Below, one piece after another: positions 12,257-63,054 of a stretch of 64,000 bases of DNA (positions are counted from its first letter, which is position 1; each line of letters opens with the position of its first letter). A model generated the notes under the pieces. That model had not been told where the DNA came from. It made no database searches and was given only the letters and a program-made list of their open reading frames with translations. This stretch comes from Nitrospirota bacterium (GTDB taxonomy: Bacteria > Nitrospirota > UBA9217): NCBI GenBank assembly GCA_963751455.1, contig CAVVUN010000002.1, positions 320,001 to 384,000 on the forward strand, in the 5' to 3' direction. A program made the position numbers and the translations under genes.

Positions 12257-12282
12257 TAAATCGCGCTCTGGGAGGTGAAAAG

Positions 12283-12582: not shown

Positions 12583-12591
12583 GCAAATCAT

Positions 12592-12710
12592 GAGGGACGA
12601 GGATGAAGGACGAGGGACGAGAAGAACTGGAACCGATTCGTCCATCGTCAGAGCGAATCCCGATTTTCATCGGGATAAACTGCGTGAGCGCTCGCCCATC
12701 GTCCATCGAA
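12592..12710. repeat. Heptamer (GGACGAn) inverted-arm element
   Basis: GAGGGACGAGGATGAAGGACGAGGGACGAG ... TCGTCCATCGTC ... TCGCCCATCGTCCATCG; internal CCCGAT-N4-ATCGGG palindrome. Confidence 0.65.
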
Positions 12711-12729
12711 ATCTGAATAGGAGGATATT

Positions 12730-13502: not shown

Positions 13503-13527
13503 CCGGCAACGCCTTTAAAGATTATTT

Positions 13528-14049: not shown

Positions 14050-14100
14050 ACCTGGGCGGAGATATTGACGCTGCTAACCTTAACGAAAAGAGGTAACGAA

Positions 14101-15102: not shown

Positions 15103-15104
15103 TC

Positions 15105-43256: not shown

Positions 43257-43730
43257 TTACGGCTTATAGCACCAATGAAGATTACAATCGCTCCCACCCC
43301 AGTAAATCCTCACGACCTTTTCGTTAAAGCCGTCTGGGCAAGCAGCAGTATCGCCTTTATAGGGATTTGTTGTGTCTCCGTCGCAGCCATAACCTGTAAA
43401 ATACATTCCGCCAAAGCCATAGGTCGCACCGCTGATTGTTCCGCTGATGTTTGCGTTTCCCACCACAGCCAAATTCGTTTGTGAGCTATTCGTACCAACG
43501 CTAAGTTTACCGTTAACAGTACTGTTGCCGGTTACAGTCTCGCCGTTACTGGTAACTGTGCCGTTGACCTTTAAATTGCCATTGATCTCCGCTCTAGGCG
43601 TGGGGGCAGTACCCGTACCAACTCCGAAATTGCCGTATACAATCAAATCGCCGGGTGCCGCATAAATATTTTCCGTGGTAAGAACCAAAACCGCTAAAAC
43701 GACCATAACCATTAAGACGCTAATCTTCAT
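43257..43730 (-). CDS. Secreted protein with fibre-like beta repeats and a Cys-rich tip
   Basis: Signal peptide; NFGVGT..EINGNLKVNG repeats; GGMY..C..NP..CP.G..C..WC C-terminus. Confidence 0.65.
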   Translation of the reverse strand: MKISVLMVMVVLAVLVLTTENIYAAPGDLIVYGNFGVGTGTAPTPRAEINGNLKVNGTVTSNGETVTGNSTVNGKLSVGTNSSQTNLAVVGNANISGTISGATYGFGGMYFTGYGCDGDTTNPYKGDTAACPDGFNEKVVRIYWGGSDCNLHWCYKP

Positions 43731-43808
43731 TGTTCCCTCCTTTTAGAGATTATCCATAAAGTGAGCTGCTGAATTGAAAAATAATTTGCGTTGCCCCGCC
43801 TGCTTTTG

Positions 43809-46064
43809 CTACCGAGCAACTGCCGTGGCGACGGCAGAGCCAGTGGACTCATTTCCTACCGAATCAACGGCGGATACAACATAGTAATACACTGTGCCTG
43901 CAGTAAGCCCGGAATGCGCGTAGTTCGTAACATTGCCAAATGGTATCTTTGTGCCGGTCAAGGGCGAGACATTTGACTGCGTTGACCAATAGAGATTGTA
44001 ATATGAAGCGCCCATAGAGGCTGTCCACGTCACGTTTATCATAGCTGAACCGACAGTTCCCGCCGTTGCAGCTAAACCGGACGGAGCTAAAATCGTTTCT
44101 CCTGCTGAAACAAGCGACTGAACGGGAATACTGCTGTCGGCCGTGCTGTTGTTCCCAAGTTCGCCTGAGTAATTATATCCCCACGCCCAGACCGTGCTGT
44201 CATTTCTGAGCGCTACGGTGTGAAGATGTCCCGCTGCTATTGCCGTTATGCCGGTAAGGTAGGTGCCGCAAGCGCCCGGTGAGGCACCGGCGCTGGCGCA
44301 GACCTTAACGGGAATAGTGCTATCGGTCGTGCTATTGTTCCCAAGCTGGCCAAAGCAGTTAGATCCCCACGCCCAGACCGTGCCGTCGTTCATAAGAGCC
44401 AGAGTGCGGTACAATCTCCCTGCTATTGCCGTTATGCCGGTAAGGTAGGTGCTGCAGGCTCCCGCTGATGCGCCTGCAGTTGCGCAGACCTGAACGGGAA
44501 TAGTGCTAAGAGCCGTGCTATTGTTTCCGAGTTCGCCATTATCATTATCTCCCCACGCCCAGACTGTCCCGTCATTCCTGAGCGCGATGGTGTAGAAATC
44601 TCCGGCTGCCAATGCGGTTATGCCCGTAAGGTACGTGCCGCAGGCGCCCGCTGATGCGCCTGCAGTGGCGCAGACCTGAACGGGAATACCGCTGTCAGTG
44701 GTCGTGCCGTTTCCCAGCTGCCCGTAGTTGTTGTATCCCCATGCCCAGACCGTGCCGTCATCTTTGAGCCCTACGGTGTGACCATATCCCCCAGCTATTG
44801 CCGTTATACCCGTAAGATACGTGCCGCAGGCGCCCGCCGATGCGCCGGCAGTCGCGCAGACCTGAATGGGAATAGCGCTGTTGGCCGTGGTATTGTTCCC
44901 AAGCTGACCATTGTAGTTTCCTCCCCAAGCCCAGAGTGTGCCGTCATTTTTGAGCGCGACAGTATGAAAATTTCCCCCTATTGCCGTTATGCCTGTAAGA
45001 TACGTGCCGCAGACGCCCGGTGAGTCGCCGGCAGTGGCGCAGGCCTGAACGGGAATAGTGCTGTCGTTCGTGCTGTTGTTCCCAAGCTCGCCACCTGAGT
45101 TATATCCCCACGACCAAACCGTGCCGTCATTCTTGAGTGCAACGGTCTGAAGAGCTTCCCCTGATATTGCCGTTATGCCGGTAAGATACGTGCCGCAGGC
45201 GCCCGCCGAGGCGCCGGCAGTGGCGCAGACCTGAACGGGAATAGTGCTATCGGACATACTGTTGTTCCCAAGCTGGCCAATCGAGTTAAATCCCCACATC
45301 CAGACCGCGCTGTCATTCTTGAGCGCGACAGTATAACCAGATCCCCCTGCTATTGCCATTACCACTCCAGGAGTGGCAGAAACGATGCTTGACTCCACAC
45401 TTTCCCCATAAGCGTTCACTGCTGTTACAACGTAGTAATATGTTGTTTTATTGGTAAGGCCTGTCTGCGTGTAGGGGCTTGTCGCGTTCACGATTTTCGT
45501 TCCGGTTGACTTTGTGACAGTGGACTTTGTTGACCAGTAGATGTTGTACGACGTCGCGCCCGTAACAGTGTTCCAGCTTATGATGTTCTGTCCATTGCCG
45601 GCTAATACGGTAAGACCGATCGGGGCAGATGGAAACACTTCTGCTGTTGCGGGCGTTGCGCTCACCTCACTCGACTCTTCGCTCTCCCCATTGCTATTCT
45701 CTGCCGTTACCACATAATAGAAAGTCGTATCGTTTGACAGGCCGGCATGGATGTATGGACTTGTTATATTGGAAATCGTTGTCCCTGCCGTATTTGTAAC
45801 ACCTGATGTTGTTGACCAGTAGATATTGTACGACGTTGCGGCGGTAACACTGTTCCAGCTTATGATATTCTGTTCATTACCCGCGGCTGCGATAACGCCG
45901 GTCGGAGCAGATGGAAGCGTTGTTCCTGAAGACGTTCCGCTGCTATGTCTCCCGCCCTTGCAAGCCGACAACAGCGCCAGGAATAAAACAGCACCAAGAA
46001 GCAGTTTGTAAGAGGCTTTCCCTGTGCATATCACAACGAACCTCCTTCTTATCACATGCACCAT
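43809..46064 (-). CDS. Lipoprotein with FN3 domains and an RCC1-like beta-propeller
   Basis: LLSAC lipobox; three FN3-like units (SYNIYWS..YYVVTA); seven VWAWG.N..GQLG blades with a ~186-bp DNA period. Confidence 0.85.
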   Translation of the reverse strand: MVHVIRRRFVVICTGKASYKLLLGAVLFLALLSACKGGRHSSGTSSGTTLPSAPTGVIAAAGNEQNIISWNSVTAATSYNIYWSTTSGVTNTAGTTISNITSPYIHAGLSNDTTFYYVVTAENSNGESEESSEVSATPATAEVFPSAPIGLTVLAGNGQNIISWNTVTGATSYNIYWSTKSTVTKSTGTKIVNATSPYTQTGLTNKTTYYYVVTAVNAYGESVESSIVSATPGVVMAIAGGSGYTVALKNDSAVWMWGFNSIGQLGNNSMSDSTIPVQVCATAGASAGACGTYLTGITAISGEALQTVALKNDGTVWSWGYNSGGELGNNSTNDSTIPVQACATAGDSPGVCGTYLTGITAIGGNFHTVALKNDGTLWAWGGNYNGQLGNNTTANSAIPIQVCATAGASAGACGTYLTGITAIAGGYGHTVGLKDDGTVWAWGYNNYGQLGNGTTTDSGIPVQVCATAGASAGACGTYLTGITALAAGDFYTIALRNDGTVWAWGDNDNGELGNNSTALSTIPVQVCATAGASAGACSTYLTGITAIAGRLYRTLALMNDGTVWAWGSNCFGQLGNNSTTDSTIPVKVCASAGASPGACGTYLTGITAIAAGHLHTVALRNDSTVWAWGYNYSGELGNNSTADSSIPVQSLVSAGETILAPSGLAATAGTVGSAMINVTWTASMGASYYNLYWSTQSNVSPLTGTKIPFGNVTNYAHSGLTAGTVYYYVVSAVDSVGNESTGSAVATAVAR

Positions 46065-46232
46065 CTCTCGCTTAAGGTCCCTATATATCTATCTTGCACT
46101 TTCTTCTTGTGCGAGGTTCATCTGTTGTAATGCTGCCAAGCGCTGAACGCGTGCAATAAGTTCCTTGAAGACGCAGAGCGATAACGAAATCCCTATACGT
46201 TCATTGTGCAATTTTCTCACCGTTGCCGAAAA

Positions 46233-47213
46233 TTAGAAACGCGCAGCCAGAGTGAAGTTAAATGAGTTTGCGTCTCCAAAACCGAGGTTATTATCGGTCA
46301 GATGGAAACGGCCATAAGCACCGGTCAGAGAAAGCCGGCGAGTAAAAAAATACTCGAAATTCGCCGAATAAGTTCTACCTCCCGGGATAGCTGAATAAGT
46401 TCTACCTCCCGGAATAGCTAGTGACTTGCTTGAACTGTTTTCAAATCCTATTCCCGCACTCATGCGTCGGGTCCAGTAATAAACAAGCGACACCGATTCA
46501 GTAGTGTTTATTGGTTGTGCACTATGTACTGATCTCGTCTGGTTGATTCTTGATTGGAAACTTACGCTCCTGTCGCGGTTCAGTTGACGCACGTATTTTG
46601 AAACAACGCCATAGCCAAGTGTTTCCGAATTTAGAAAAAACATATCTGGATTGACATTAATCATATTTATCGCTTCTGCGTAATTATAGGCAATCTCGAT
46701 ACCTACTAGTAAGGAATTCGTAAGATAATTTCCGATGCTTATTCCTGACTTATACTCCCTAGTTTCCCCCTGGCCAGAGTCATAGAAACGAAGTCTAGAC
46801 TTGTCAAACGATATTGCAATGGCAAGAGGGAACCCAGGCCTTGCATAATTAAGCACGAATTGTTGCTCCGGTCCGGTCCCATGCCGTATTCCAGATCTGA
46901 AGTCCATGTGCTGCCAACTAAAAAAAGCGCTGCCGATATGCTCAAGAAATGCAGCTTCTGCATAAGGATGGTCTACAGTGCTTACGGGAGCAAAGAATAT
47001 TTCTCCTGAAAATCCGTACGAAATCGTCCTGTTATCTGTCGGCTCTTCCGGCATCAAAGAAATGAACGTTGCCCTGCTATCCCGAGAGTCAATCCATTGG
47101 TAAATGGTTGATATCTGCGCCTGGTACTGGTCCTCACCAAATGCTACGTTGATACAAAGCACAAACGAAATCAATGCAACCATGCTGCTCTTTTTTTTCA
47201 TGCGCTTCTCCAT
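46233..47213 (-). CDS. Putative outer-membrane beta-barrel (porin-like)
   Basis: Signal peptide, PYAEAAFL motif, amphipathic strands, C-terminal Phe; 27-bp tandem duplication at 46366-46419. Confidence 0.6.
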   Translation of the reverse strand: MEKRMKKKSSMVALISFVLCINVAFGEDQYQAQISTIYQWIDSRDSRATFISLMPEEPTDNRTISYGFSGEIFFAPVSTVDHPYAEAAFLEHIGSAFFSWQHMDFRSGIRHGTGPEQQFVLNYARPGFPLAIAISFDKSRLRFYDSGQGETREYKSGISIGNYLTNSLLVGIEIAYNYAEAINMINVNPDMFFLNSETLGYGVVSKYVRQLNRDRSVSFQSRINQTRSVHSAQPINTTESVSLVYYWTRRMSAGIGFENSSSKSLAIPGGRTYSAIPGGRTYSANFEYFFTRRLSLTGAYGRFHLTDNNLGFGDANSFNFTLAARF

Positions 47214-47572
47214 GCTCTAGCAGATAGGTTTCATGGATATTCTTTCTTGGATAAGGCTCATCTCTGTGGTAATTGCTGCTAAACACTGCAACGCGTGCAG
47301 GAGGCTTAACTGTTACATCTTATTATTTAAAAAATCGCCTAATCTCGCCTCTCAAATAAATTTGTTGAGGTGGTGTGGCACTCTCGAAAACGATACTATA
47401 TTAAGCAACTATTATCAGCCTTAATTTCTCCAATTTTTGTCAATTCAATTTTTTGATTGAGAACGCCCGTAAAGCCACCTGCCCGCAAATTTTTAATTAC
47501 CTCAGTACGGTCAAATTCTAAATTATTATTTTCACATTCTTTGATGTTTGCATTAGAAAAATTATTAAGTAC

Positions 47573-47603
47573 GTAGGTTGGGCTGAACTACGTGAAGCCC
47601 AAC
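47573..47603 (+). repeat. REP element (GTAG + hairpin)
   Basis: GTAGGTTGGGCTGAA..GAAGCCCAAC. Confidence 0.8.
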
Positions 47604-47615
47604 TTCTTCTTCCAC

Positions 47616-48154
47616 TCATTCACGTCCAATCGCGTCGTTAAACACTATATCCTTTGCACCCCAATCAGAATGATATTTACCCTGCTTCACATATCTGTGA
47701 AAACTCGAATATCTCCATTTCAATGGCGCTGTCGTTAAACCATGTTTAACGGGATTGTAATGTATGTATTCGACATGCCGTATATAATCCATATCATCTT
47801 GTGTCTGATGCTCCCAAAACGTCGCTGCCAGATATATTGTTCACGTTTCGCTGTCCTGCTCGCGCGTTGCCTGCTTTCAAACGGATCATGACAGATCCTT
47901 GTAAAATTGCTCTTGATCAGCATCCACCGCTTTGAATATTCATTGTCGCCTGGAGGCAATGTCCAAAGGCAATGAAGGTGATCCGGCAGCAACACGATTG
48001 CATCCACAATCAACGGATACTTCGCTTTGACCGTCTCAAATGCCTGCCTCAGGAGCCTCGGATTCTCACCCAGGCACAATATCTTTTTCCGCTCATACGT
48101 TACGACCGTAAAGAAAAAAGTTGCTCCTGGTGTTTGCGAACGTCTATAGCGCAT
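47616..48154 (-). mobile_element. REP-associated tyrosine transposase (RAYT, TnpA-Y1), frameshifted near 47818
   Basis: MRYRR..GATFFFTVVT, LPDHLH (HUH), WQRRF then WEH..YIHYNPVKHG..WRYSSF in the shifted frame. Confidence 0.88.
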
Positions 48155-48182
48155 CTGTTTTCCATCATCACTCACAATATGT

Positions 48183-48211
48183 GTTGGGCAATAAACCTCT
48201 GCCCAACCTAC
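48183..48211 (-). repeat. REP element, inverted relative to the one at 47573
   Basis: Reverse complement reads GTAGGTTGGGCAGAGG..TGCCCAAC. Confidence 0.8.
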
Positions 48212-48218
48212 CGGCTGA

Positions 48219-48306
48219 TATTGCCATAACGACTCCAGGGAGTGGCAGAAATGATGCCTGTCCCCGAGCTCTCCCCATAAGCATTCACTGCTGTTACAAC
48301 GTGGTA
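48219..48306 (-). pseudogene. Degenerate copy of part of the FN3-RCC1 lipoprotein gene
   Basis: Aligns by eye with 45351-45437 (TATTGCCAT..CTCCAGG.AGTGGCAGAA..CCCCATAAGC.TTCACTGCTGTTACAACGT). Confidence 0.75.
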
Positions 48307-48389
48307 TTTCCCTTGCCGCCATAATAATAATCGTAGCCAATGGACATAAGCCGGTGCTCATAATCAAAGGTATACCTGCTGCCATACTT

Positions 48390-48764
48390 TCAAGGTCCGA
48401 CCCCGCTCCCGCTTTTTTCCGCTTGCTTCTTGTTCTTACTGCCAACGAATGGAAGCCATGCATCTGTATTTCCAATCAGTATCATTTCGGGCTTTGTGCT
48501 TTTCTTCTTCGGCACGACTACTTCAACACCAATTGGAACACGTTTGAAATCCATCGCAATCCATTTGTAACTCTTTAAACCATTCTGACGGCTTTCAATT
48601 ATGGGAGCAGCAAATAATTTACTATCGATTCCATATTCAAAAAAATAATCTTGGTACATTTCATTTGCAATTTCGAACATCTCTTTATCTGAGCGATCAC
48701 TTTGAGTTGTGCAACCTGCAAGCAGAACAATTACTGCACTAATTTCAATAAGTTTATTCATCAT
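48390..48764 (-). CDS. Lipoprotein, putative periplasmic immunity protein
   Basis: LLAGC lipobox; low GC; directly downstream of a toxin-tip remnant. Confidence 0.65.
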   Translation of the reverse strand: MMNKLIEISAVIVLLAGCTTQSDRSDKEMFEIANEMYQDYFFEYGIDSKLFAAPIIESRQNGLKSYKWIAMDFKRVPIGVEVVVPKKKSTKPEMILIGNTDAWLPFVGSKNKKQAEKSGSGVGP

Positions 48765-48773
48765 GACAGCGCC

Positions 48774-48941
48774 CTATTGCCTCGGCCCAAGCGTGGCAGT
48801 CCCTCTAAATTCTATACGATAGGGCGTATCTGGGCCTGCGTAAATTCCACCAATAATCGTTTCGACGTTTCTCGCGAAAGTATTTGCAGACCAAGGCTTT
48901 ATGTCAAAGTTGTTGTAATCAAAACAAATATGCTTATCCAT
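48774..48941 (-). pseudogene. Orphan toxin C-terminal remnant, colicin-M-like
   Basis: Manual translation MDKHICFDYNNFDIKPWSANTFARNVETIIGGIYAGPDTPYRIEFRGTATLGPRQ*. Confidence 0.45.
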
Positions 48942-49133
48942 TTTATCATGCAAGTTTCCTTACACTAAACGGAGTTCCAGTCCTTCTTGACTGCCTGGCG
49001 TGCAATTCTATCTATGTAATCGCGGACAACCTTAATACAATGATCGCGCGATTCACCATTAGACAAATCGCCTAATGTTCGATAATCTATTTTCCTAAAC
49101 AAGGAGATCGCGTAAGAAAAATAAGGGAATTGG

Positions 49134-49748
49134 TCAAGGTCTCTTCCCGGGAGTGAGAGTCCCTTCCTCACCCGAACCAATAAGATCCGCTGTTGGAATT
49201 AACCTGCAATTCTTTAGCTTATTCTTCTCAATAAACTCTTTCACTCTTTCTGTAACTATTATGAACTTCGGCAATGGCCATATAGTAAAAAAATCAGAGC
49301 CATCCCATTGCGATTCATCTACAAACAAACCTTTTCCAAAGTCTGTATATATTTTGTGACCGCATGCGGTGCACTCGTACTTTAACTTGATTTCTGATTT
49401 CGGATGTGCATTGCCGCCATTACCTATCACAATAAACTCCCACAACGGAGGCACCGCGTATTTGCTCCCTCTTCCAACCTTATCGACGCCAATAGGCTTC
49501 AGCGTGTAGCCGGTAAAACCTGCCTCTTCAAACAGTGTTGCCACTTCTTCCGTGATTATCCAATCACTCAGGAAAGTCGTTATAAAATGAGGTACCTTTG
49601 CAGACTTCAAGTCGATTTTTAAATCCCCGATTCTCGTGCCTGCACGCTGATGTCCTTTGTCGATAGGACATTTTATTCCTTCCCAGTCAGTTCCCTCAGC
49701 GAAATCTGCCCTACTATAATCTTTTATAGACAATTTATAAAAAATCAT
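49134..49748 (-). CDS. Immunity protein, double-CXXCG / Imm11-like
   Basis: CPIDKGH and CTACG; IITEEV..F..GFTG; DESQWDGSDFF; IIVTERVK; follows the toxin gene. Confidence 0.7.
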   Translation of the reverse strand: MIFYKLSIKDYSRADFAEGTDWEGIKCPIDKGHQRAGTRIGDLKIDLKSAKVPHFITTFLSDWIITEEVATLFEEAGFTGYTLKPIGVDKVGRGSKYAVPPLWEFIVIGNGGNAHPKSEIKLKYECTACGHKIYTDFGKGLFVDESQWDGSDFFTIWPLPKFIIVTERVKEFIEKNKLKNCRLIPTADLIGSGEEGTLTPGKRP

Positions 49749-49806
49749 TTAAATTCCCGAATTTCTAATGTACTTCCATTGCAAGATCAGCAATTGCTTT
49801 AGATTA

Positions 49807-51063
49807 CTATTTTAACCTTCGCCATGGTATGCCAAATTGTATCACCATTGTGTCAAGGTGTTCTAATATTTGTCTATCATTAGCAGTGGGGTTTTTCTCA
49901 AAAAACTGATACCAAGCTTTATTCCAGTTATTCTGCCCGGTGTGGATACCATATGGCTTAAAGATGTGAGCATCTGTTGCGAGGTTAACAGTGAATTCAT
50001 TTATGTTGAGACCTGCTTTTTCAAAATGTGGAGCAAGTGTTCTTGCCTGTGGTAAAAGATGGTGGACTTGATATCCCGGTATCCTTGCCATCTTCACCGG
50101 CATAAACATCAATGGCATTTCATAGAAAGAATGCGGTAACAGATAATTCGTAGTTTGAATGCCTAACCAATCAATACCAGCAGCTATGTAATTCCCAGCT
50201 TCCCAATTTTCGTCGCATCTACCCTTGATATAATCTCGAAATCCACTGAATAAGCCGCTTGACTCTCCTGTTATATCAGAATTATATCCTACTGTGCTGT
50301 TCCCCCATTCACTTCCCCAACTCAACGATGAATTGCCACTGTTTGAGTCATACGGCACAAAGCTACTTGATGAGTAGGGCGACGATAGCTGGTCATAATA
50401 ATTAAAATAACCATAATCCCTATTATAGGGGTCTGCATAAAAGGTAAGCGAGGTATCATATTCATCATACCCGCTGGGGTCAATATAGCGAAGCGGACTA
50501 TTCAAAACATAGCTGAACCGATTGAGCGCCTGTGGATTGGTAGGATCAGAGACTACTGGATTAGCGCTGATAAACCTTCCAATCGACGGATTATAGAACC
50601 GCGCATTGTAATTGTACAGCCCCGTCTCGGCATCAAACTCCTGTGAGGTGTACTTATGGTTCACGGACAGGAGTCCGTAATCGCTCAGTGTTTCTCCGAA
50701 AGGACGATAGCGGATGGTATACACTTTCTCCTTGGCGTAGCTTCCCGCCATGACCTCGAAATTCCCCATGGTCACGGTGCCCTGGCTGATTATGAGGCTG
50801 TTTACGAGCACGGAATTTTCGATCTGCTTCGTGTAGCCACAGTCGTATCCCCCCTTGATCGTTACGTTGACCGGGCGGTTGAGATTGAGTGGGATTGGCT
50901 CGGAGGTAAAGTTTACTGCGCGCGCCTGGATGATGTCGCCATTGACCGCTACATTATAGGCCACACGAAGCAACGAGTAATAATTATAGACCGATGTTCC
51001 GCGCAATATGCGGACAGGCGGTTTGGAACATGCGCTGTTCTGGATGGCCCCCGTCTGGGTCAC
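49807..51063 (-). CDS. Orphan Rhs core + DUF2380-like (HH-motif) toxin tip
   Basis: Rhs core LYNYNARFYNP..DPSG; tip HHLLPQ..F..GLNI..H..IH..WN..W..FF. Confidence 0.78.
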   Translation of the reverse strand: MTQTGAIQNSACSKPPVRILRGTSVYNYYSLLRVAYNVAVNGDIIQARAVNFTSEPIPLNLNRPVNVTIKGGYDCGYTKQIENSVLVNSLIISQGTVTMGNFEVMAGSYAKEKVYTIRYRPFGETLSDYGLLSVNHKYTSQEFDAETGLYNYNARFYNPSIGRFISANPVVSDPTNPQALNRFSYVLNSPLRYIDPSGYDEYDTSLTFYADPYNRDYGYFNYYDQLSSPYSSSSFVPYDSNSGNSSLSWGSEWGNSTVGYNSDITGESSGLFSGFRDYIKGRCDENWEAGNYIAAGIDWLGIQTTNYLLPHSFYEMPLMFMPVKMARIPGYQVHHLLPQARTLAPHFEKAGLNINEFTVNLATDAHIFKPYGIHTGQNNWNKAWYQFFEKNPTANDRQILEHLDTMVIQFGIPWRRLK

Positions 51064-52879
51064 GACCTGGGTGCGCCACCTTAATAGTTGCTATTCAATT
51101 TTCAAAGAACATCTGTGCACGATATCGTGGAAGTAACATTTGTGCCTATCGAATCCCAACCGCTTTGAGGAACTGGCCCATAATCAACTGAACTGCTAAA
51201 TAAACACATAGACATAAAAAGAAGCAATCATATATAACAATACTAAAACGCTGTTTATATTTCTCTGTTTCAAAGTTTCCATTTTATAATTCTCTTCGAT
51301 GATTTTGTATTTGTCGTGATAGACAAACGAAAAGTAAAGTATAATTGTGACCATGAATAACAGAAATAGCTGGACAACCTTGGGCAAGTGCTGAACATCA
51401 ACATTTATCAGACCTAGTTTTCGTAATAAAAGAACTATCGTAAGCACATTCAAAGACGCGAATATCGACACAATAAACATGGCCTTGTATTCAGGGACGT
51501 CTTCAGCTCCCCATTTTTTTAACTGCCACGTGTAAGTTCGGTAAAAAATATATTTATAAATATTCATCATATATCTCCTGGCACTCCCGGCATATTGTAT
51601 ATGACCGGAATGGGATACACTATTACAGGTGAAGGAGGACCTTCAAACCCACCCATCAAATCTGCGGCCCAGTAACCCACCCCGGCACCCACACCGAATG
51701 GCCCACCGATGAGTCCATAAAATCCAACACCCACATCCAGCGCTGATTTACTCGCTTTATCATAGTCACCCATTTGGTAAGCATTACGATACTGTCCGAC
51801 TGAGAGAAAAGTAGAAGACATAAAAGTCGCGTAGCCGCCCATCCTGAATAATTTTGCGTTTCTCAACGCAATAGAACGAGCGCTGGTCCATTGATTACCG
51901 CCCCAACGGTTAGAATACCATTTCGCGTTTATACCGCGCCAATAACCTTCAAATTCATTACTGTATTCGCCTGCCGCAGCCCCTGTACCTAATAGATTTA
52001 AAACACTCCCGGCAACGAAAGCAGTGTTATTATTCCACCGGCTTTCATTTTCATTACCAGTCGCGTCTGTGTTTGGCCAGGGTGTACTCGTATCATATCC
52101 GAAAGTGTAGGACGGCCAATTATTGCTTGCTAAGCTATGCAAGTCATACGGCACAGAGCTGTTTGATGAGTACGGAGAAGAGATCTGATCATAGTAATTG
52201 TAATAACCAGAACCACCCCAATCAGAATAGCCAATATTGTGCGAGTAAGCATAATAGGAGTCATATTCATCATACCCGCTGGGGTCAACATAGCGAAGCG
52301 GACTATTCAGGACATAGCTGTAACGGTTTAGCGCCTGAGGATTGGTAGGATCAGAGACTACCGGATTAGCGCTGATAAACCTTCCAATCGACGGATTATA
52401 GAGCCGGGCATTGTAGTTGTACAGCTCCGTATCGGCATCAAACTCCTGAGAGGTGTATTTATGGTTCACGGACAAGAGTCCGTAATCGCTCAGGGTTTCT
52501 CCAAAGGGACTGTAGCGGATGGTATACACTTTTTCCTTCGCATAGCTGCCCGCCATGACCTCGAAATTCCCCATTGTCACGGTGCCTTGACTGATTATAA
52601 GGCTGTTTACGAGCACGGAATTATCGATCTGCTGAGTGTAGCCGCAGTCGTATCCGCCCTTGATTGTTACGTTAACGGGGCGGTTAAGATTGAGGGGGAT
52701 TGGCTCGGACGTAAAGTTTACTGCACGGGCCTGGATGATGTCGCCATTGACCGCTACATTATAGGCCACACGAAGCAACGAGTAATAATTATAGACCGAT
52801 GTTCCGCGCAATATGCGGACAGGCGGCTTGGAACATGCGTTGTTCTGGATGGCTCCGGTCTGGGTCACAACCTGGGTGC
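50456..52879. repeat. ~620-bp direct repeat of the Rhs core (50456-51074 versus 52261-52879)
   Basis: Near-identical DNA at a constant offset of 1805 bp; differences mostly synonymous. Confidence 0.9.
51196..51570 (-). CDS. Membrane immunity protein for the main Rhs toxin
   Basis: Three hydrophobic helices; overlaps the toxin stop codon; AT-rich. Confidence 0.7.
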   Translation of the reverse strand: MMNIYKYIFYRTYTWQLKKWGAEDVPEYKAMFIVSIFASLNVLTIVLLLRKLGLINVDVQHLPKVVQLFLLFMVTIILYFSFVYHDKYKIIEENYKMETLKQRNINSVLVLLYMIASFYVYVFI

Positions 52880-55800
52880 TGCCGAGATGGTCGCCGTGGT
52901 AGTAAAGAACATCGGACCCGGTCTTCGTTGCTATGCGCGTGTCTCCGGCGAAGATGGCCTTGGCGCACGTATTCAATACGCACTCGTACAGTTTCCCAAG
53001 ATAGATGTTTTCGCCGCTCGAAGTAGATTTCTTGACCCGCGTACCCGCGCCATCGTACACGAAACTTGTGGTCGCGTTGTTTAGAGTGACGGACTGCGGC
53101 ATGTTGTCATAATCATACGTAATCGATCTGTAAACCGTTGAACCAGTGCTTTCTGTTATCAAATTCCCGTTCAGATCGTAGGAATACGTCATGCCGGTTG
53201 TAATGTTAGATTTAACAGCATGGGGATGGAGACCCGTGCTGTCAGTGTGGTCATAAGTGATGCCTTCTTTATAGCTGATATTACCAGTTTGGGAATAGTT
53301 ATAGAAAAGGTCGCTCACGCCTCCAAAGCTGGCGGCGTTCGGGGTCTGTGCATGCTGAATGCGGCCCAGACCGTCATACTCAAACCACTGAGTCATTGAG
53401 TAATCGACACTGTCGACAATGTTCTTAATATTTCCCCCTGGGTAATAATCATAGGCGAGATTAATGAGCGTCTGGTTCGTAGTCCCGGTGACGATTGATT
53501 GTAGGTCGTAGTTTGACGTGCTATACATGTAATTCGTAATAATGCCGTTGCCGTATGTAATCGTCCCGGGCTGGCCTATTGCATTATACCCGTTGTACGC
53601 CGCGTAATTAACAGCGGTGCCGGTTACAGACGAAAGGACGCCGGCAGTATAGGCATAGCTGACTGTTTCGTTATCAGGATAAGTAAGGCTTGCAGGCCTT
53701 CCGAGCGCATCATAGGTCGTCTTGAACGTATAAGAGGGAGTGACGTTGACGACTGATTTTGTTGTTTGGGATGTTCTGCCCAGCATGTCATAGTAATACT
53801 TTGTGGTGCCCGAGGCGTCGGACATTATTGAGAGTCTACCGACAGGATATGTGGTAGCTGCGTCATCTGGTGCGACATCGTAGGTGTAGTGAACGTCGGT
53901 CATGTTTACCGGTCCGTTTTTCGGATACTCTTTCCAGAGGAGCCTGTTCAATGCATCATAATGGAAGTATATGGGGTTCGTGCCCAAGCTATTAGCGTTA
54001 GCGTCCGTTTGGGAGGTAAGATTGTTGTTGGCGTCAAAGGAGTAGCTCCATTGGCCCATATCCGGATCTTTCATGTAATATTTTCTGCGGAGTGAATCGT
54101 AGCGCATTTCTGTTTGGTTGCCTTCGGCGTCCGTTACATAGCGGAGATTGCCGAGCACATCGTACTGGTATATGGTCGTCGCATAGGGCGCTCCTTGATC
54201 GGTCGTGCAGGAGGTGAATGCTGTACCAGGATTATATTCATCGACCTGTATAAGGCGGCCGAAGACATCTCTTGTTTCGCGCTTCTTATTGCCATCAGGG
54301 TCGATCCACGCCGTAACGCCATTCAGGTAGCAGGACTTTACAATCGTTCCATCAGAATTGGTTTTCTGCGTAACCCGGCCAACGGCATCATACTTTAACA
54401 CCTGTGTAGGATAGCTTGCAAGACCCTCGAAATAGGGGAGAGAAGAGATATAAACAGCGCCTCGAGCATCATAGGTTCTGTCGGTGCTGATCACTTTGTT
54501 GTCGGGTGCTTGGGAAAGGGTCTTGATGGTTCTTCCGAAGCCATCAAAGAAGACTTTTTTCCAGATAGTAGCGCCGGTTGAATAATCGATGGTTGAAGTG
54601 ACGGTTACATGCTGCTGTCCGACCGACCCAAAGCTATTATAAGAATATGACACCGTCCCATTTGAAGATGCAATCCCGTATGGATCAATTACCTTTGTTT
54701 TGCGGCCCAGAGCGTCATATTCGGTAGTGGTAGCGACGAGATTAGGGTCAATTACACTCGCCACCTGGCCATACAGTCCTTTGTCGGTCGATGCATTGAT
54801 CCCATAATATTGAATCGTTGTCCATTGGTCTTTGTCGTTTGTTTTACCTATAGGGTAAGTGTTTGTTGCTGTGTCATAGAAAATACGGGATTTTTTTCCA
54901 TTGCCATCGCGTGTGCAGACGAGGTTGCCGTATCCGTCCGAATCATAGGACATATTAATTTCGGGATCTGTTGCTCCTGTGGGCTTAGAATTGAGCCATC
55001 CGACGATTGTAGTAACATTACCGTGGGTTGGAATCTGGTTCGTGTACCCGGCCGGCATGGAACGTGTTTCACAGTCAGACGGATCATCATAATAGTATGT
55101 AGTAGAAGAGACTAGTTGTCCAGAAGAATCATATATCTTCTCGTACTTGGGCAGCCCGACTATGTAATTTTCGGTACTGTCCGTCGTGAAAGCCCTGGCT
55201 ATAGTCCGGTAAGGCGCTGATGCATTTGCAGAATTATACTCTTGTTCAGATGTTACGTTGCCATAGCCATCGTAGGAATAGTTTGTTTTTTTGTTCTGGC
55301 CGCTTGTGGAATCGTTGCACGTTGTCGTTGTGCTGCCGTCGCAAATATAGGTCTTAGTTGTATCAACTGCATTAAAATATCCGCCATTAGCGTTTATAAA
55401 GGAGTGGTAAATGATTGCCGATTCACTGTATATTGATCCGTTAGCATCAGTTACTCGTGTGTGATATGGCTTACCCTTTAAATCGGGTACTGGGGGATAG
55501 CATGCACATGGTTTGCCGGGTTCTGGTGAGCACGGCGTACAAGGTAAACCGGTAAGCACATTATAGTATTCAATCCCCTGGTGGAACCAAGTCTCAGTTA
55601 TTTTCCGCTCGTCATATGGGTCAGCAGGGCCGGTGACTGTTACATGATTGAAGCCTCGGAAGTCGCGCTCGGTGATGTGGTAGTAGCCACCTTCGTAGCC
55701 ATATTTTGTCTCGGCAAGATTGCCATTGCCGTCATCTCTTATAACAGAGCTGACGGTTTGAACTGAAAAAGGAAGCTGCACATTCGAATATTGTGTAGAT

Positions 55801-57986
55801 GGCGTATAGCTAATTCCCACGCTACCACCGATACTATTGAAAATCTTTATGAGGAGATTGCTCGCTTGGTCCGGATTGTCCGGATTGTCTGCCGGCCCAA
55901 CAGCTGTCGCAACCACCGGAATTCCCTGTGACGAAAACAAGTATCGGCCGCTGAGGAAAACAACATCAGTTCTGCCGTCGCCATTGAAATCGCCGATATG
56001 ATACCGTTTGATATTGTCGTTGCCCCATGTCATTGTGCCCCACGGCGATGAAAAGGTTTTAAAATTGCAACCGGCAGAAAGAGCTACCGAGAGGTTTCCA
56101 GATTGATCTATGAAAAGAATATCGGTCATGCCGTTTCCATCATAATCAGCAAACTTATACCGAGTAATATCGCCATTGCCCATTGAAATGGAAGGCATCG
56201 CAGTGATAAAAGCAGAACCCGTAGAGAATTCCGTTTGTATATTGCCGTTAGAGTCAATATAGATAATATCCGCCTTGCGGTCTCCATTAATATCACCAAC
56301 AGCGTACTGAGCCGGAATATCTCCATGACCCGAAGTTGCCCAGGGGTTTGAACTAACAACAAAACCTATTTCTGAATATGTGGCAACTTGAAGATTCCCA
56401 TCGCTGCCAATATAAAGAACATCTGCCTTTCCATCACCATTGAAGTCCGCAACTCTATACCTCGCCTCTTCACTATTACCCAATTTTGACGCAAACGTAT
56501 CAGAAACAAAACCGGCTGTTGAAGATCCTGTAGACAAATAAACATTCAACGTACCAGTCTGTACAGATAAAATATCAGCCTTTCCATTTCCGTCAAAATC
56601 TGCAACAAAATTCTGTTCAGGATTATATGCATTCACTGTAAGCCATTGTTCAACTGATCCAAAATTGGCGCCCGTAGATAGTGCAACATCAAACACACGC
56701 ACACCACTTATATAATCACGGTAGGATAAAAAAATATCTGCTTTACCATCTCCATCAAAATCTGCTGGATAAATTATCGTGTTGTGGGTATCGCCGATCC
56801 TGCCCCAAAGAGTCGTTATAAAATCAGATCCGGTCGATGAACCAACCGTCGCATATTCATTTCCCTGTGAATTAAGATAATCAATCCTAAGAATATCGCT
56901 GCGTCCATTTCCGTCAAAATCACTAATCTTATAATGACGTGACTCGACAAGATGGCCGAGACTTGATTTCGTACTGACGATAAAACCGGTGCTCTCCGGT
57001 GAGTAATCCATAATTGTTTCAGGCAATGGGCTCGTGCCATCTTTGCCTAATTGCTGGATGCCTCTTAAAAGAGTCCGAAAAGTATTGGCACTCTCTCTAT
57101 AGTTAAATTTATACGATCGAACGAGATTATTATTGGCAGTTATATCTATCCGGTCAAGGCGATACACGGTCTTGACCCCAAAATTCGGCGTGTATATTGT
57201 CACAGCATCCTGGCGTGCGCCGTCATCTCTTACGAACGTTATTCTGTTACTCGACATAATCGACGTGCTAGGCCATGTATAGTCTATATGATCCAGATAA
57301 ATATGTCCTTGATCTTTAAAATAATAATATTTTATATAATTGCCATTCGCGTCCATTTCTTGATCAAGGCACCATTTGAATACTTTACTCGCGTCGGCCG
57401 CAATATTATGGGCCGGATCGTCCGGTTGATCCTGTCTTGACTCGGAACTCTGGCCGAAGAAATAATGCGTGCCTGACTTGTCAATGACTTCCCAGGACGT
57501 AGGTCTTCCTGTTGTACTGTCCGTGGAAACCTTAAATTTTAAAAAACCAGTTTCTATTGTAGCGCGGTATTCGCCGTTTCCGATATTCGTCAGTCCTATA
57601 GTGTTTCCACCGGTTTTGAAAACGTAGCTATTTTTATCATAATTAACGCCGTTCTTTGTGCTACGCTCTATGGAGTCCACTTCAAGCTGCCATCCTAATC
57701 CAAGCCAACTATTTGACTGGTTGTTTTTATAAGTCAGGGTAAGTTTCGGTTCCATTCCGTTGCGTCCTGTGGGGACAAGAATGGGCATCAAATGTTTCAT
57801 CGCTCCCGTAAATAGGTCGGGAGTTGCTCCATCAAATTCTGAGGATGCATTATTGTCTTCGATTATTGATGATTTAAAAGATAGAGATGAATTGTCGTCA
57901 GCATCTTCTTCTCCAAATGCTGGAAAACGGAAGACTGTAGATATGAGAAGGATAAATAGGGAGAAAAGACAAAGCAGCTTCTTCAT
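51567..57986 (-). CDS. Secreted SpvB/FG-GAP/TcdB-mid/YD-repeat Rhs polymorphic toxin
   Basis: Signal peptide; SpvB-like GRNGMEPKL.L.Y..G.GW; DF.GDG..D repeats; RDFRGF; YD repeats; DHLGS..YSPFG..DPSG; Gly/hydrophobic tip. Confidence 0.9.
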   Translation of the reverse strand: MKKLLCLFSLFILLISTVFRFPAFGEEDADDNSSLSFKSSIIEDNNASSEFDGATPDLFTGAMKHLMPILVPTGRNGMEPKLTLTYKNNQSNSWLGLGWQLEVDSIERSTKNGVNYDKNSYVFKTGGNTIGLTNIGNGEYRATIETGFLKFKVSTDSTTGRPTSWEVIDKSGTHYFFGQSSESRQDQPDDPAHNIAADASKVFKWCLDQEMDANGNYIKYYYFKDQGHIYLDHIDYTWPSTSIMSSNRITFVRDDGARQDAVTIYTPNFGVKTVYRLDRIDITANNNLVRSYKFNYRESANTFRTLLRGIQQLGKDGTSPLPETIMDYSPESTGFIVSTKSSLGHLVESRHYKISDFDGNGRSDILRIDYLNSQGNEYATVGSSTGSDFITTLWGRIGDTHNTIIYPADFDGDGKADIFLSYRDYISGVRVFDVALSTGANFGSVEQWLTVNAYNPEQNFVADFDGNGKADILSVQTGTLNVYLSTGSSTAGFVSDTFASKLGNSEEARYRVADFNGDGKADVLYIGSDGNLQVATYSEIGFVVSSNPWATSGHGDIPAQYAVGDINGDRKADIIYIDSNGNIQTEFSTGSAFITAMPSISMGNGDITRYKFADYDGNGMTDILFIDQSGNLSVALSAGCNFKTFSSPWGTMTWGNDNIKRYHIGDFNGDGRTDVVFLSGRYLFSSQGIPVVATAVGPADNPDNPDQASNLLIKIFNSIGGSVGISYTPSTQYSNVQLPFSVQTVSSVIRDDGNGNLAETKYGYEGGYYHITERDFRGFNHVTVTGPADPYDERKITETWFHQGIEYYNVLTGLPCTPCSPEPGKPCACYPPVPDLKGKPYHTRVTDANGSIYSESAIIYHSFINANGGYFNAVDTTKTYICDGSTTTTCNDSTSGQNKKTNYSYDGYGNVTSEQEYNSANASAPYRTIARAFTTDSTENYIVGLPKYEKIYDSSGQLVSSTTYYYDDPSDCETRSMPAGYTNQIPTHGNVTTIVGWLNSKPTGATDPEINMSYDSDGYGNLVCTRDGNGKKSRIFYDTATNTYPIGKTNDKDQWTTIQYYGINASTDKGLYGQVASVIDPNLVATTTEYDALGRKTKVIDPYGIASSNGTVSYSYNSFGSVGQQHVTVTSTIDYSTGATIWKKVFFDGFGRTIKTLSQAPDNKVISTDRTYDARGAVYISSLPYFEGLASYPTQVLKYDAVGRVTQKTNSDGTIVKSCYLNGVTAWIDPDGNKKRETRDVFGRLIQVDEYNPGTAFTSCTTDQGAPYATTIYQYDVLGNLRYVTDAEGNQTEMRYDSLRRKYYMKDPDMGQWSYSFDANNNLTSQTDANANSLGTNPIYFHYDALNRLLWKEYPKNGPVNMTDVHYTYDVAPDDAATTYPVGRLSIMSDASGTTKYYYDMLGRTSQTTKSVVNVTPSYTFKTTYDALGRPASLTYPDNETVSYAYTAGVLSSVTGTAVNYAAYNGYNAIGQPGTITYGNGIITNYMYSTSNYDLQSIVTGTTNQTLINLAYDYYPGGNIKNIVDSVDYSMTQWFEYDGLGRIQHAQTPNAASFGGVSDLFYNYSQTGNISYKEGITYDHTDSTGLHPHAVKSNITTGMTYSYDLNGNLITESTGSTVYRSITYDYDNMPQSVTLNNATTSFVYDGAGTRVKKSTSSGENIYLGKLYECVLNTCAKAIFAGDTRIATKTGSDVLYYHGDHLGSTQVVTQTGAIQNNACSKPPVRILRGTSVYNYYSLLRVAYNVAVNGDIIQARAVNFTSEPIPLNLNRPVNVTIKGGYDCGYTQQIDNSVLVNSLIISQGTVTMGNFEVMAGSYAKEKVYTIRYSPFGETLSDYGLLSVNHKYTSQEFDADTELYNYNARLYNPSIGRFISANPVVSDPTNPQALNRYSYVLNSPLRYVDPSGYDEYDSYYAYSHNIGYSDWGGSGYYNYYDQISSPYSSNSSVPYDLHSLASNNWPSYTFGYDTSTPWPNTDATGNENESRWNNNTAFVAGSVLNLLGTGAAAGEYSNEFEGYWRGINAKWYSNRWGGNQWTSARSIALRNAKLFRMGGYATFMSSTFLSVGQYRNAYQMGDYDKASKSALDVGVGFYGLIGGPFGVGAGVGYWAADLMGGFEGPPSPVIVYPIPVIYNMPGVPGDI

Positions 57987-58102
57987 GATAGACTTCCTCC
58001 TTTAGCACAGGTTATTCTTAAAACAAACTTGACCAAAATATCTAAAGCCTCTATACGGACATTTTCCCGTGATGGCCATCTCAATAGAGATAAAAAAATA
58101 CA

Positions 58103-60499
58103 TTAATTATTTGACTCGTTACCATTCCTGTTCGTGCACTGGCTCCTGCCCGGCTGCAGGTCCCAGTACCCGAGGGAGTAATACTGTTCGTTGATATAGG
58201 ATGCAATTTCATTGGCCTTGGTGAAGTTGCCTTCGAGGAAGAGATCCAGAACAATGTGCAATGCCTCTCCCGGATTGGTGAATTCCGCGGTGTCTGCGGA
58301 GATAGAAGGGTCTGTTCCATCGCTTGTGTAAATCAGGCTGTTGGAATAACTGCTGTTATAGAAGACGTTGCTTTCTTGATAAGCATCGCTTGCGCTGCGT
58401 GAACCGTCGAGTTCAATGCCCACAGAAAACGTGCCGCCGGCGGCCGCTGTGAGGTCCGTAAAAAATCCGTTGCCAAGGCTGACATTGACGTTTGAATTCT
58501 GTGCGAGAAGCGTAGTGTCTGCATAGAGAGCGCCGCTGCCTGCGCCATCGAATATGGTCTGCGCAGAAGCGATTTGCGGATCGTCTTTCAGGGCGTGTAT
58601 CTTGATGAAGAAATCTCCAGTATCCGGGCTGCTGGAGCCCGAGTAGATCACGAGGTCGGCGCTTACGATTGCTGCACCTTGGGGTATCGATTGCAGGTTA
58701 AAGGTGTAAAAGGGGCGGGTTTCGATCAGTCCATGCATGTAATAATTATCCGTATTGCTTTGATAGGTATACTCGTATTTACTCGCATACGAGTATGAGG
58801 TTAAAAATTGATCATAATAGTCCTGCTGGTACTGAACTCCGTTCTCCTGTGTCTCATAGAAATCCCGGTACACGTATCCTCCGGTGGCGTTTATGGTGAC
58901 CGTTTTCCGGGCTCCATCGATTCCGAAATAGGTGAGGTTCAAGGAAGTCGTTATTGCCCCGCTCCCGATATTGCGCGCGAGAGCGCGGATCTGGCGAACT
59001 GCTGCCTGGGAATGTTTATACGAAGCCAGGTCGGTTCCCGTCATATCTTGTTGAACCATTACTGAAACGGGTAAATAAGTTGGACTTGGCTGATAAGTGG
59101 CACTATTTCCGGAAAGTTCGTATATAAGTGTGGGATTAAAAACGTAAACACCAGGTGACGTGTCGCACGATATCGTGATGGCGGCAACGACTGTGACGGT
59201 CCCGCCGGGTTGAACCGATGTGGACGCGGTCCACGGCGCTCCGTAGTTTCCTGCATCGGTAAATTCTCCGCTCCATCCTGCCGGGAGATTTGCTATTTTC
59301 AGTGAACCCGATTTTGTTATATATGCCGTGCTGCTGCCGGTGTTCATAAGCGTTATATAGGCGAGGAACGTGCCGCCGGGGAGCATAGATGTCGGATTAA
59401 CAACGGCGGACGTAATTTCGGCGGACAGCGGCGGGCTGAGCGCTCCTACCAGAAGCTGCGTTACAGCCTGACCAAGGGTGCCGGATATAGCGGAGATGTT
59501 CTGGCCGTCCATTGCATAGACTATGCCTGTCCCTTGCGCACCGATATTCTCCGGGGGTTCCCCGGTCCCGAAGAAAAGAGTGGTGCTGTTCGCAACCATC
59601 GACAAGACTGCGCCGGAACCTGAATCCGCCTGTTCCCACACGAGCGCCATCGCGCCGTTGTCCCATCGGTATAGCTGCTCTTTGTGTCGATTGTCGACCG
59701 TCGTTGCCATGCCGATATACAAGTTGTCACCGTATGTTTGCATTGACCGGATGGTCGAAAAGTCAATTCCCGAAGTTTGTTGAGTAAAATTGATCCCGTC
59801 AGTCATTTGATATATCGAACTATCGAAAGAACCTGCAAAAAGCTTGGTCTGAAATACTTCCATGGCTTGAATGCCGTTTCCGCTCGCGTAGCTCACTTGT
59901 TCAATTCCAGTCCCGTCAAAGCGGGCGATGAAGTCAGTATTTGAGTCGCCGATATAAAGGTAGTCGTTCCATGGATAAAGAGTTTTGAACCCCTGCCATC
60001 CTGATGAAAGTGAACTGGAATCCGCGACTTTGGTCCATTGCATGTCTCCGTCGAATCTGAAAAGCTGTCCGACACCCGCGTTAACGTTTCGAGCGGAGGC
60101 ATAGAGCTGTTCCTTGTATACGGCAAATTTTTCTACTTTAGCATCAAAAGGCGATGAAACGGGACTCCATGAAGTGCCCCCAGCATACCGGTAGATAATG
60201 GAAAGTCCGTCCCACGCATTCTGGGAGGCTGCGGCATAAAGCTGTCCTTGAAAGATTATGATGGCATCTACCGATACACCCAATTCGCCTGAGATAGCTT
60301 CCCATGCAGCCACGATGCTCTCGGCGTTTTCTTGATATCTGTATACTTTACCGGGCTTAGAGGTGGCGGCATAAAGACTGCTCTGCTGAGATGAGGAATC
60401 GCTGATCAGGGTCGGGGAAGAGGTTGTGCAGGAAAGGAGTCCGACAGAAATGAGCACAATGATGAACGTTGCGAGCAGTGTATATTTATTGGTGCGCAT
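58103..60499 (-). CDS. Large secreted lipoprotein (beta-propeller + Ig-like + beta-sandwich)
   Basis: LLSC lipobox; repeated F/Y..LYA..YR.DG blades; FNLQSIPQGAAIVSADL. Confidence 0.65.
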   Translation of the reverse strand: MRTNKYTLLATFIIVLISVGLLSCTTSSPTLISDSSSQQSSLYAATSKPGKVYRYQENAESIVAAWEAISGELGVSVDAIIIFQGQLYAAASQNAWDGLSIIYRYAGGTSWSPVSSPFDAKVEKFAVYKEQLYASARNVNAGVGQLFRFDGDMQWTKVADSSSLSSGWQGFKTLYPWNDYLYIGDSNTDFIARFDGTGIEQVSYASGNGIQAMEVFQTKLFAGSFDSSIYQMTDGINFTQQTSGIDFSTIRSMQTYGDNLYIGMATTVDNRHKEQLYRWDNGAMALVWEQADSGSGAVLSMVANSTTLFFGTGEPPENIGAQGTGIVYAMDGQNISAISGTLGQAVTQLLVGALSPPLSAEITSAVVNPTSMLPGGTFLAYITLMNTGSSTAYITKSGSLKIANLPAGWSGEFTDAGNYGAPWTASTSVQPGGTVTVVAAITISCDTSPGVYVFNPTLIYELSGNSATYQPSPTYLPVSVMVQQDMTGTDLASYKHSQAAVRQIRALARNIGSGAITTSLNLTYFGIDGARKTVTINATGGYVYRDFYETQENGVQYQQDYYDQFLTSYSYASKYEYTYQSNTDNYYMHGLIETRPFYTFNLQSIPQGAAIVSADLVIYSGSSSPDTGDFFIKIHALKDDPQIASAQTIFDGAGSGALYADTTLLAQNSNVNVSLGNGFFTDLTAAAGGTFSVGIELDGSRSASDAYQESNVFYNSSYSNSLIYTSDGTDPSISADTAEFTNPGEALHIVLDLFLEGNFTKANEIASYINEQYYSLGYWDLQPGRSQCTNRNGNESNN

Positions 60500-62481: not shown

Positions 62482-63054
62482 CGTCATTTACGCCCAATAC
62501 ATGCCTTAAATTGCCTTGCTTCTCATCGCCTATCCACAGGTCCTCAACTTTAGCAAAATAGAATTAAATTAAAAGAATGCGACAAATAAATATAGAACTA
62601 AAGAAGACATACACAAAGGAGATTGCTCATACATATGTTTACACGTTTAGTAAGGGCATATGCGAATGCATGAAACTGAACATAATTTCAATGCAGCTAA
62701 CTGTTCATATATTAAAATTTATCTGGTAAAATTATCCTAATTTAGTTGACAAAGCGGATTTAAGAGGTACTGTTATATAAAGACTAAGTATTCTGCATTA
62801 AAGAATTACCTTCTAATTATTTAAGAATATAGTTCTAAATTCTTACAAATCAATGATCCTCCTGTTCTGGTCTTTCCCTGTTTTGAAGATTTATCTTCGC
62901 TTCATTGCTTAATGTGAAGCAGTAAAGTGAAAGAATGTGATTATCTTTACGATATATCTCCAGTTATAGCTTCGGATAGAAATAATCTGTGCAATCATTC
63001 CCGGCGGTAAGAGTCCATATTAAAGGCGATATAGAAATTTCTGCGGAGGACAAA

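Follow-up and report, generated by a model that had tools for sequence, protein, structure and literature searches.

How does a large toxin that leaves the cell through the general secretory (Sec) pathway find its target without a needle? The question is raised by an island of genes in a Nitrospirota bacterium (GTDB lineage UBA9217; assembly GCA_963751455.1, contig CAVVUN010000002.1), at positions 43257–60499 of a 64,000-nt window (the whole stretch of DNA that was analysed, positions 320,001–384,000 of the contig). All genes of the island lie on the minus strand, and at its centre is a 2139-aa Rhs polymorphic toxin. Sec-exported, needle-less Rhs cocoons of this kind were predicted as a class in 2012 and occur in many phyla, and the field has yet to explain how they reach a target and get into it. 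The answer to which we lean, with slightly more belief than doubt, is that a domain inserted in the toxin shell (domain X) likely docks a presumably trimeric fibre encoded downstream, and that this fibre would select the target cell, with no part played by a type VI secretion system (T6SS) or by TcA.

The Rhs gene (51567–57986, minus strand) encodes a signal peptide, an SpvB domain (aa 60–227, E = 4e-22), an FG-GAP propeller, a TcdB_midN domain (aa 633–802), a YD shell with matches to RHS repeats and the Rhs core, which closes with DPSG at aa 1901–1904, and a variable C-terminus. Signal peptides of this protein and of the fibre were read from the sequence; an N-terminal hydrophobic stretch is found in 74 out of 88 full-length homologues, and the C-terminal tips differ among paralogues and homologues. 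Residues 1201–1904 were modelled as a confident YD shell, whose best Foldseek TM-score is to TcdB2–TccC3 (TMq 0.70). On sequence evidence, the protein belongs with the TcdB/TcaC polymorphic toxins (signal peptide–SpvB–propeller–RHS), a class defined before in Table 1 of Zhang 2012 (PMC3482391): it has an SpvB domain after a predicted signal peptide, FG-GAP repeats and an RHS core, a variable tip, an immunity gene and an orphan cassette. The first-pass annotation had proposed a Sec-exported polymorphic toxin independent of T6SS and TcA, which is supported, and had called it Tc-BC-like; it is a member of this previously defined class and not a Tc-BC toxin minus its TcA. The ORF positions and common orientation that it reported for the array all held up.

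No needle was found in the host genome (5.72 Mb, 100% complete, 5.4% contaminated). Genome-wide searches detected their positive controls and returned no VgrG, VipB, PAAR or tail sheath, and no gene of an extracellular contractile injection system (eCIS) was found. There was also no match to TcA (PF18276, PF20220), in a search whose controls lacked the family and which is therefore weaker than that for T6SS, and none to ShlB/CdiB (PF03865), for which no positive control was detected; the Rhs protein has no TPS or FHA domains. The absence of VgrG, PAAR, Hcp, TcA and CdiB originally reported for the window extends, for VgrG and PAAR, to the whole genome, and with less certainty also for TcA. There is a cluster resembling a type II secretion system (T2SS) at C15:917293–929945 (gene names other than gspD were read from the sequence; C, G and L numbers are our handles for contigs, genomes and loci), and the genome has five secretins.

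Domain X (aa 1716–1811; 52554–52841, minus strand), which the first-pass annotation had missed, is a ∼100-aa insert in the last hairpin ahead of the Rhs core plug, between YHGDHLGS (at residue 1696) and RYSPFG (at 1824). Three paralogues on contig C15 align straight through this site without a gap. The spacing between the DxLG and YxPFG motifs is 16 aa in 83 of the 120 listed homologues (out of 270), 116 aa in four and 121 aa in the query (17 have other values and 15 could not be parsed), and only the query and the four homologues with the 116-aa spacing match the X profile. X is under purifying selection: its copies in the main gene and in the neighbouring orphan module differ by 16 synonymous and 3 non-synonymous codon changes.

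Searches of Pfam, NCBIfam, PDB sequences and the ESM Atlas returned no family for X. Folded alone (pLDDT 91), it is modelled as roughly two beta-helix coils with a helix cap and a hairpin, weakly similar to the start of the beta-helix of a PL6 lyase (TMq 0.54, E = 4, rmsd 2.1); no match at E ≤ 0.001 came from Foldseek searches of PDB and BFVD, where the top viral row was a cyanophage tail-fibre-like protein (E = 0.34). The predicted fold is that of a truncated beta-helix, uncapped and with one face open, and none of the residue patterns on X could be tied to a binding face. Apart from this gene, five or more other genes or loci have X fused into Rhs. Elsewhere X is found mostly as the final domain of stalk proteins that are secreted and have PKD, InlB-B, FN3 or RCC1 repeats, and in most relatives (the related loci are chiefly from Nitrospirota and Desulfobacterota) it sits on a separate secreted stalk, often opening with one YD hairpin, encoded between the Rhs/immunity genes and the fibre gene. 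A single YD hairpin follows the signal peptide in ten X stalks, of which six adjoin Rhs (P = 0.02). Such a hairpin could extend the edge of the shell, so that stalk-borne X and Rhs-fused X may be two forms of one design.

The predicted partner of X, for receptor binding, is a 157-aa fibre with a Sec signal peptide (43257–43730, minus strand), whose mature start APGDLIVYG is followed by a GNxGVGTxxP motif. Fibres of this family share the mature N-terminus AxGDLxVxG and have variable tips; only the first ∼10 mature residues are conserved, even between unrelated fibre bodies. The GNxGxGTxxP motif is shared with Bdellovibrio MAT fibres, and profile hits to 8OND, 8OJN, 8OL4 and 8OML reach E = 1e-6 (a further PDB hit of the fibre profile, to 'geopilin', was rejected as a signal-peptide match). 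Fibres of relatives carry phage Collar or Peptidase_S74 domains, whereas the fibre in the window has neither Pfam domain.

Genomic contexts link the fibre to X. In 33 out of 77 genome loci a fibre gene lies downstream of the X gene at a distance of no more than 750 bp, mostly starting within tens of bases of its stop, and Rhs genes are present in 15 of these 33 loci as compared with 3 among the remaining 44 (Fisher P = 1e-4; 14/19 versus 3/24 for loci with at least 6 kb upstream). Among 64 genomes of the class (the host and 63 related genomes), ten have X and 11 have the fibre (the same ten plus G053), with neither in 53; the X count disregards G025 and G027, whose hits (E about 9e-4) are partial matches in full beta-helix proteins. 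For example, the related genome G002 has exactly one X, inside an Rhs protein, and one fibre gene, two genes apart. In the host genome, all five fibre genes are within X loci.

The association also holds when X is part of the toxin. Three new loci encoding Rhs with an embedded X were found in a separate metagenome scan, and all three have the order Rhs-X, immunity gene, fibre, as do G002 and, over 9 kb, the window. The fibre is downstream in five out of five embedded-X Rhs loci with context, and in none of five close Rhs loci that lack X. Of 22 loci for SpvB-family Rhs, 15 have both X and fibre, five have neither, two have X only and none has the fibre only (G015, G063, G057, G001 and G029:C260 were left out of this count for a contig end inside a gene or for low similarity); nine loci chosen by Rhs rather than by X have both in four cases and neither in five. 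Two other flags of an embedded X, at L172 (a separate stalk) and L095 (a C-terminal X), are not core insertions. In a tree of 98 X domains, one clade (SH-aLRT 92) that spans four phyla contains 40 fibre-adjacent domains, five Rhs-inserted domains and no non-fibre domain, and labels change seven times over the tree, versus 36 times when shuffled. Judged from these neighbourhoods, it is one X subfamily that pairs with fibres, and such pairs are also used without Rhs.

We propose the following model. Sec would export the Rhs protein and the fibre, as their signal peptides indicate, and both would probably cross the outer membrane through the T2SS-like system of the genome. The C-terminal toxin is predicted to be enclosed by the YD shell, as in TcB–TcC. 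X would project from the last shell hairpin and bind the AxGDLxVxG start of the fibre, perhaps through an extension of the open beta-helix of X, and the target range may be set by the variable fibre tips (phage collar, S74-chaperoned or small Cys-rich). The model ends before toxin release and entry, and this copy has an Asn at the position of the first autoprotease Asp.

Several observations weigh against this docking model. The support for docking comes throughout from genomic context and fold logic. In the model of the shell, X is placed between two paired strands with a pLDDT below 50, as only five out of 56 alignment rows carry X, and with this low confidence the model does not decide whether X is inside or outside the shell (in mosquito SGS1, as described in PMC9935623, domains inserted in the Rhs shell sit outside it). 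The fibre gene in the window is 9 kb from the Rhs gene, past a transposase and two other genes. Pairing is not strict: there is no adjacent fibre in 44 out of 77 X loci, no fibre hit in 17 out of 30 genomes with a non-adjacent X, and no adjoining X gene for eight out of 14 GDL-type fibres fetched regardless of X; among 69 assessable metagenome X loci, 29 have an adjacent fibre. For most of the co-occurrence loci X was the basis of selection, the Rhs loci without X number only five and come from four genomes, and the loci are not independent (shared genomes, duplicates). The co-occurrence over the class is partly circular because X-adjacent fibres, of which five came from these genomes, served to build the fibre profile, and the X tree is a quick tree on 92 columns. 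As to export, gspD is split over two reading frames (C15:918274–920314), possibly by an assembly error. Finally, Asn1874 (52365–52367, minus strand) replaces the first autoprotease aspartate, whose role in Tc/Rhs cores is described in PMC7861908. This position is Asp in 96 out of 97 parsed homologues (23 of the 120 listed were unparsed), with Asn only in this gene; the second catalytic Asp, D1901, is present, leaving one of the two aspartates of autoproteolytic release. Release of the toxin from this copy is uncertain and may be slow, different or lost.

X could instead be a tag for export or surface retention (a T2SS C-terminal sorting domain or a surface anchor) that is coupled to the fibre without contacting it, which we consider unlikely. 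X would then have moved into a loop because the C-terminus of Rhs is taken by the toxin, and the fibres would share the operon because they share the export route. In agreement with this, X is C-terminal in 81 out of 96 domain hits in genome loci and in 67 out of 91 in a further hit set, on unrelated secreted proteins including a subtilase, and there is a large set of X domains without a fibre. In L095, L109, L113, L120 and L141, fibre-less X genes are followed by genes for small secreted proteins with basic ends that we take to be PEP-CTERM-like. A general sorting tag is, however, hard to reconcile with only six copies of X in a 5.7-Mb genome that encodes dozens of large secreted proteins, and with two full-length C15 Rhs paralogues that lack X. 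X is also found at the N-terminus, internally and in 2–3 copies per protein, and the fibre-linked X domains form their own clade across phyla, with the Rhs inserts inside that clade.

Quite improbable, in our judgement, is that X decorates the shell as a glycan- or receptor-binding domain, like the carbohydrate-binding module (CBM) and lectin inserts of SGS1, with the fibre a separate adhesin of the same island. Polysaccharide binding is frequent among beta-helices, which favours such a role. The nearest structural match of X, although non-significant, is an alginate lyase, and SGS1 as described in PMC9935623 is a precedent. But X consists of only a cap and about two coils, and in most cases the fibre gene begins within tens of bases of where the X gene stops. 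Conservation of the fibres is limited to their first ∼10 mature residues, as would fit a docking motif.

The third alternative, less probable by a further small step, concerns this copy rather than the family: the toxin may not be released at all, being a tethered, teneurin-like surface protein held by a lipoprotein and serving contact or kin recognition, or the product of a decaying gene. Asn1874 speaks in its favour, and the same codon is found in the orphan Rhs module (49807–51063, minus strand), which has a copy of X and the Rhs core followed by a SitA6/DUF2380-like toxin tip. The locus contains a broken REP-associated tyrosine transposase (47735–48475, minus strand; NF047646, E = 6e-36), which is outside the system, and a truncated stalk gene (62989–63537, plus strand) with a signal peptide, one YD hairpin and an InlB-B repeat that stops where X would begin and is 59% identical to a YD-stalk-X gene upstream of Rhs in G033. 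A lipoprotein gene (803/798 aa; 58103–60499, minus strand) lies beside the Rhs gene, as it does, head-on or in line, beside all three full-length paralogous Rhs genes of the host. Bacterial teneurin-like proteins (TLPs), as outlined in bioRxiv 2025.11.11.687626, are Sec-exported and predicted to be surface-anchored. Against this alternative there is strong purifying selection: the orphan and main genes are 92% identical over 623 bp, and their 202 shared codons have 39 synonymous and nine non-synonymous differences. The immunity genes are intact, and the orphan tip is exchangeable: it is 43% identical, and its 204-aa immunity protein (49134–49748, minus strand; weakly SitI6-like) 64% identical, to the tip of a full Rhs and the product of the next gene in G029, which indicates a real toxin–immunity pair. 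Four other full Rhs-X proteins keep both catalytic Asp residues. A tethered copy here is compatible with the docking model for the family. Delivery by a cognate system (TcA, T6SS or eCIS) from another part of the genome, with incidental neighbours, would fit the TcB–TcC-like shell and could hide behind the TcA searches without a positive control, and is nevertheless very hard to credit given a 100%-complete genome without VgrG, VipB, PAAR, sheath or TcA domains and a toxin that, unlike Tc toxins as described in PMC7861908, has a Sec-type signal peptide and an immunity gene.

The main toxin domain consists of the 235 aa after DPSG (51567–52274, minus strand) and has a Gly/Ala-rich end. Searches assigned it to no family; an ESM Atlas lead to pore-forming colicins has a score of 0.89, under the 0.9 line, and a membrane immunity protein would fit this weak lead. 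The cognate immunity protein (124 aa; 51196–51570, minus strand) has three predicted transmembrane helices and is Bfi1-like (E = 2e-15, below the family cut-off). Where several orphan toxin/immunity pairs had been annotated, we find only one: the gene at 48390–48764 (minus strand) encodes a lone small lipoprotein of no family, possibly an orphan immunity protein, and no toxin remnant was found upstream of it.

The first-pass annotation had further suggested that the neighbouring surface proteins may form a dedicated display or receptor-binding apparatus; this idea stands for a single neighbour, the fibre, by way of X inside Rhs. The large lipoprotein has a lipobox (LLSC), a repeat region read as a putative beta-propeller (from the repeats and one weak Kelch hit, E = 0.009), an Ig-like domain and a DNRLRE-like domain. 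Despite its presence beside all three host paralogues it is absent from 63 out of 63 related genomes, 11 of which match the N-terminal half of Rhs; no related loci were found in the GTDB genomes searched, and there are two full-length non-self database homologues, one without the lipobox Cys pattern. It is a genome-specific companion of the Rhs genes and, on weak support, may be a surface anchor. The FN3–RCC1 lipoprotein (43809–46064, minus strand) is in the position, relative to the fibre, of the stalk gene of related loci, as in G029, and has neither X nor a YD start; only generic repeats are common to it and the stalk. The porin-like beta-barrel protein (46233–47213, minus strand; Porin_7, E = 3e-4, below the cut-off) has three paralogues elsewhere in the genome and no homologue in any related Rhs locus fetched, and it is probably a bystander outside the module.

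Other observations were made in the window and in related loci. A TPR protein with YbgF/CpoB and BamD-like matches (61126–62370), encoded between the lipoprotein and the truncated stalk, was not found in related Rhs loci. At 7010–19135 are dsrA, dsrB, a cobB-like gene and dsrM, K, O and P, which support a sulfite/sulfate-reducing host, as the sulfur-respiring lifestyle suggested earlier implies; dsrA is a 322-aa ORF that matches only profile positions 1–243 and appears shortened or frameshifted. In L094, L091 and host C15:318773–327442, the genes after YD-hairpin-start proteins encode a conserved secreted protein ('FxSGSTGADGAFNP') and another type of Rhs, and several Rhs families seem to have the YD-start accessory in common. 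Short genes with a fibre-like signal peptide and no GDL motif are found ahead of the fibres in two Rhs-X loci (L160:3321–3650 and L161:3606–3950). Fibre genes without X in L143, L147 and L153 adjoin membrane/glycosylation-type genes of one recurring family, and at host C9:222329–229508 (L064) a fibre gene is followed by a transposase-like gene and then a gene for an RCC1 protein with an N-terminal X.

The host has further Rhs loci. A second complete module (C15:1230155–1246136, L063) encodes an Rhs whose N-terminus is a papain-like protease and whose hydrophobic tip is very short, an immunity-like protein, a lipoprotein, a YD-stalk-X protein and three tandem fibres of 620–670 aa. In both of the paralogous Rhs loci at C15:117918–126716 and 1093731–1107912 (L005, L006), a lipoprotein gene of near-identical sequence lies in divergent orientation; L006 includes a 1216-aa orphan Rhs and adjoins gspF/gspE/pseudopilin-like genes. 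More SpvB/YD proteins (3401 aa, and split into 1530 + 1952 aa) are encoded at C1:85759–128749 (L011, L012), each preceded by a ∼500-aa lipoprotein of a different family.

Comparison with known systems places the toxin in a known class and suggests that the X insert and its link to the fibre are the new part. The TcdB/TcaC class as described in PMC3482391 shares the signal peptide, SpvB, integrin-like propeller, RHS, variable tip, immunity gene and orphan cassette, and its table lists 'tail-fiber' among the repeats of the class; the Rhs-core insert and the separate adaptor and fibre gene pair set the present system apart from the class as the main text presents it. We found no description of X, of its insertion in the Rhs core or of the X–fibre pair in the open full-text literature (subscription papers lie outside this scope, and the supplements of Zhang 2012 may bear on it). 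The Tc BC cocoon TcdB2–TccC3 (4O9X/6H6G), in the account of PMC7861908, has the same shell fold, domain order and PxxxxDxxG-type core end, and differs from the present protein, which is a single chain with a Sec signal, an immunity gene, the X insert and antibacterial-type tips, with the first catalytic Asp replaced and no TcA found. TLPs (bioRxiv 2025.11.11.687626) are likewise described as Sec-exported YD shells with toxin and immunity protein, but have an FN-plug/NHL in place of SpvB and the anchor in the same chain, and SGS1 (PMC9935623) is described with its receptor domains on the shell's outside, yet mid-shell and unrelated to X. MAT fibres of Bdellovibrio, according to PMC10769870, are also Sec-exported and phage-like, with a GxxGxGTxxPxxxL motif, S74 and non-S74 forms and mosaic tips. 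They open with a ∼130-aa domain, whose surface partner is given there as unknown; the fibres here have a GDL motif of ∼10 residues at their start, and it is to X and Rhs toxins that they are linked. For this short start in place of the ∼130-aa domain, the 157-aa fibre family was not filed as MAT. A functional analogy can be drawn with the Streptomyces umbrella particles, which PMC11062931 also describes as a secreted repeat scaffold with separate variable receptor-binding proteins: there an ALF-repeat ring with lectin spokes in Actinobacteria, here, in diderm anaerobes, a YD cocoon for which a phage-type fibre is predicted.

Secreted proteins of sulfur- and metal-reducing anaerobes commonly contain X, a domain still without a name, and its link to the fibre offers a small, directly testable model of receptor binding, a Gram-negative counterpart of the umbrella particles. 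It is also a candidate for the docking partner of secreted phage-like fibres, the point left open for MAT fibres. With credence a little short of even, we suggest that Nitrospirota and Desulfobacterota may make an undescribed modular antibacterial particle, in which a Sec/T2SS-exported Rhs cocoon would carry interchangeable phage-derived fibres through an X adaptor, either fused or on a YD-hairpin stalk clipped to the shell, with toxin and targeting tips shuffled independently. If this is true, secreted proteins in general could be fitted with trimeric fibres by the X–GDL pair, which would act as plug and socket.

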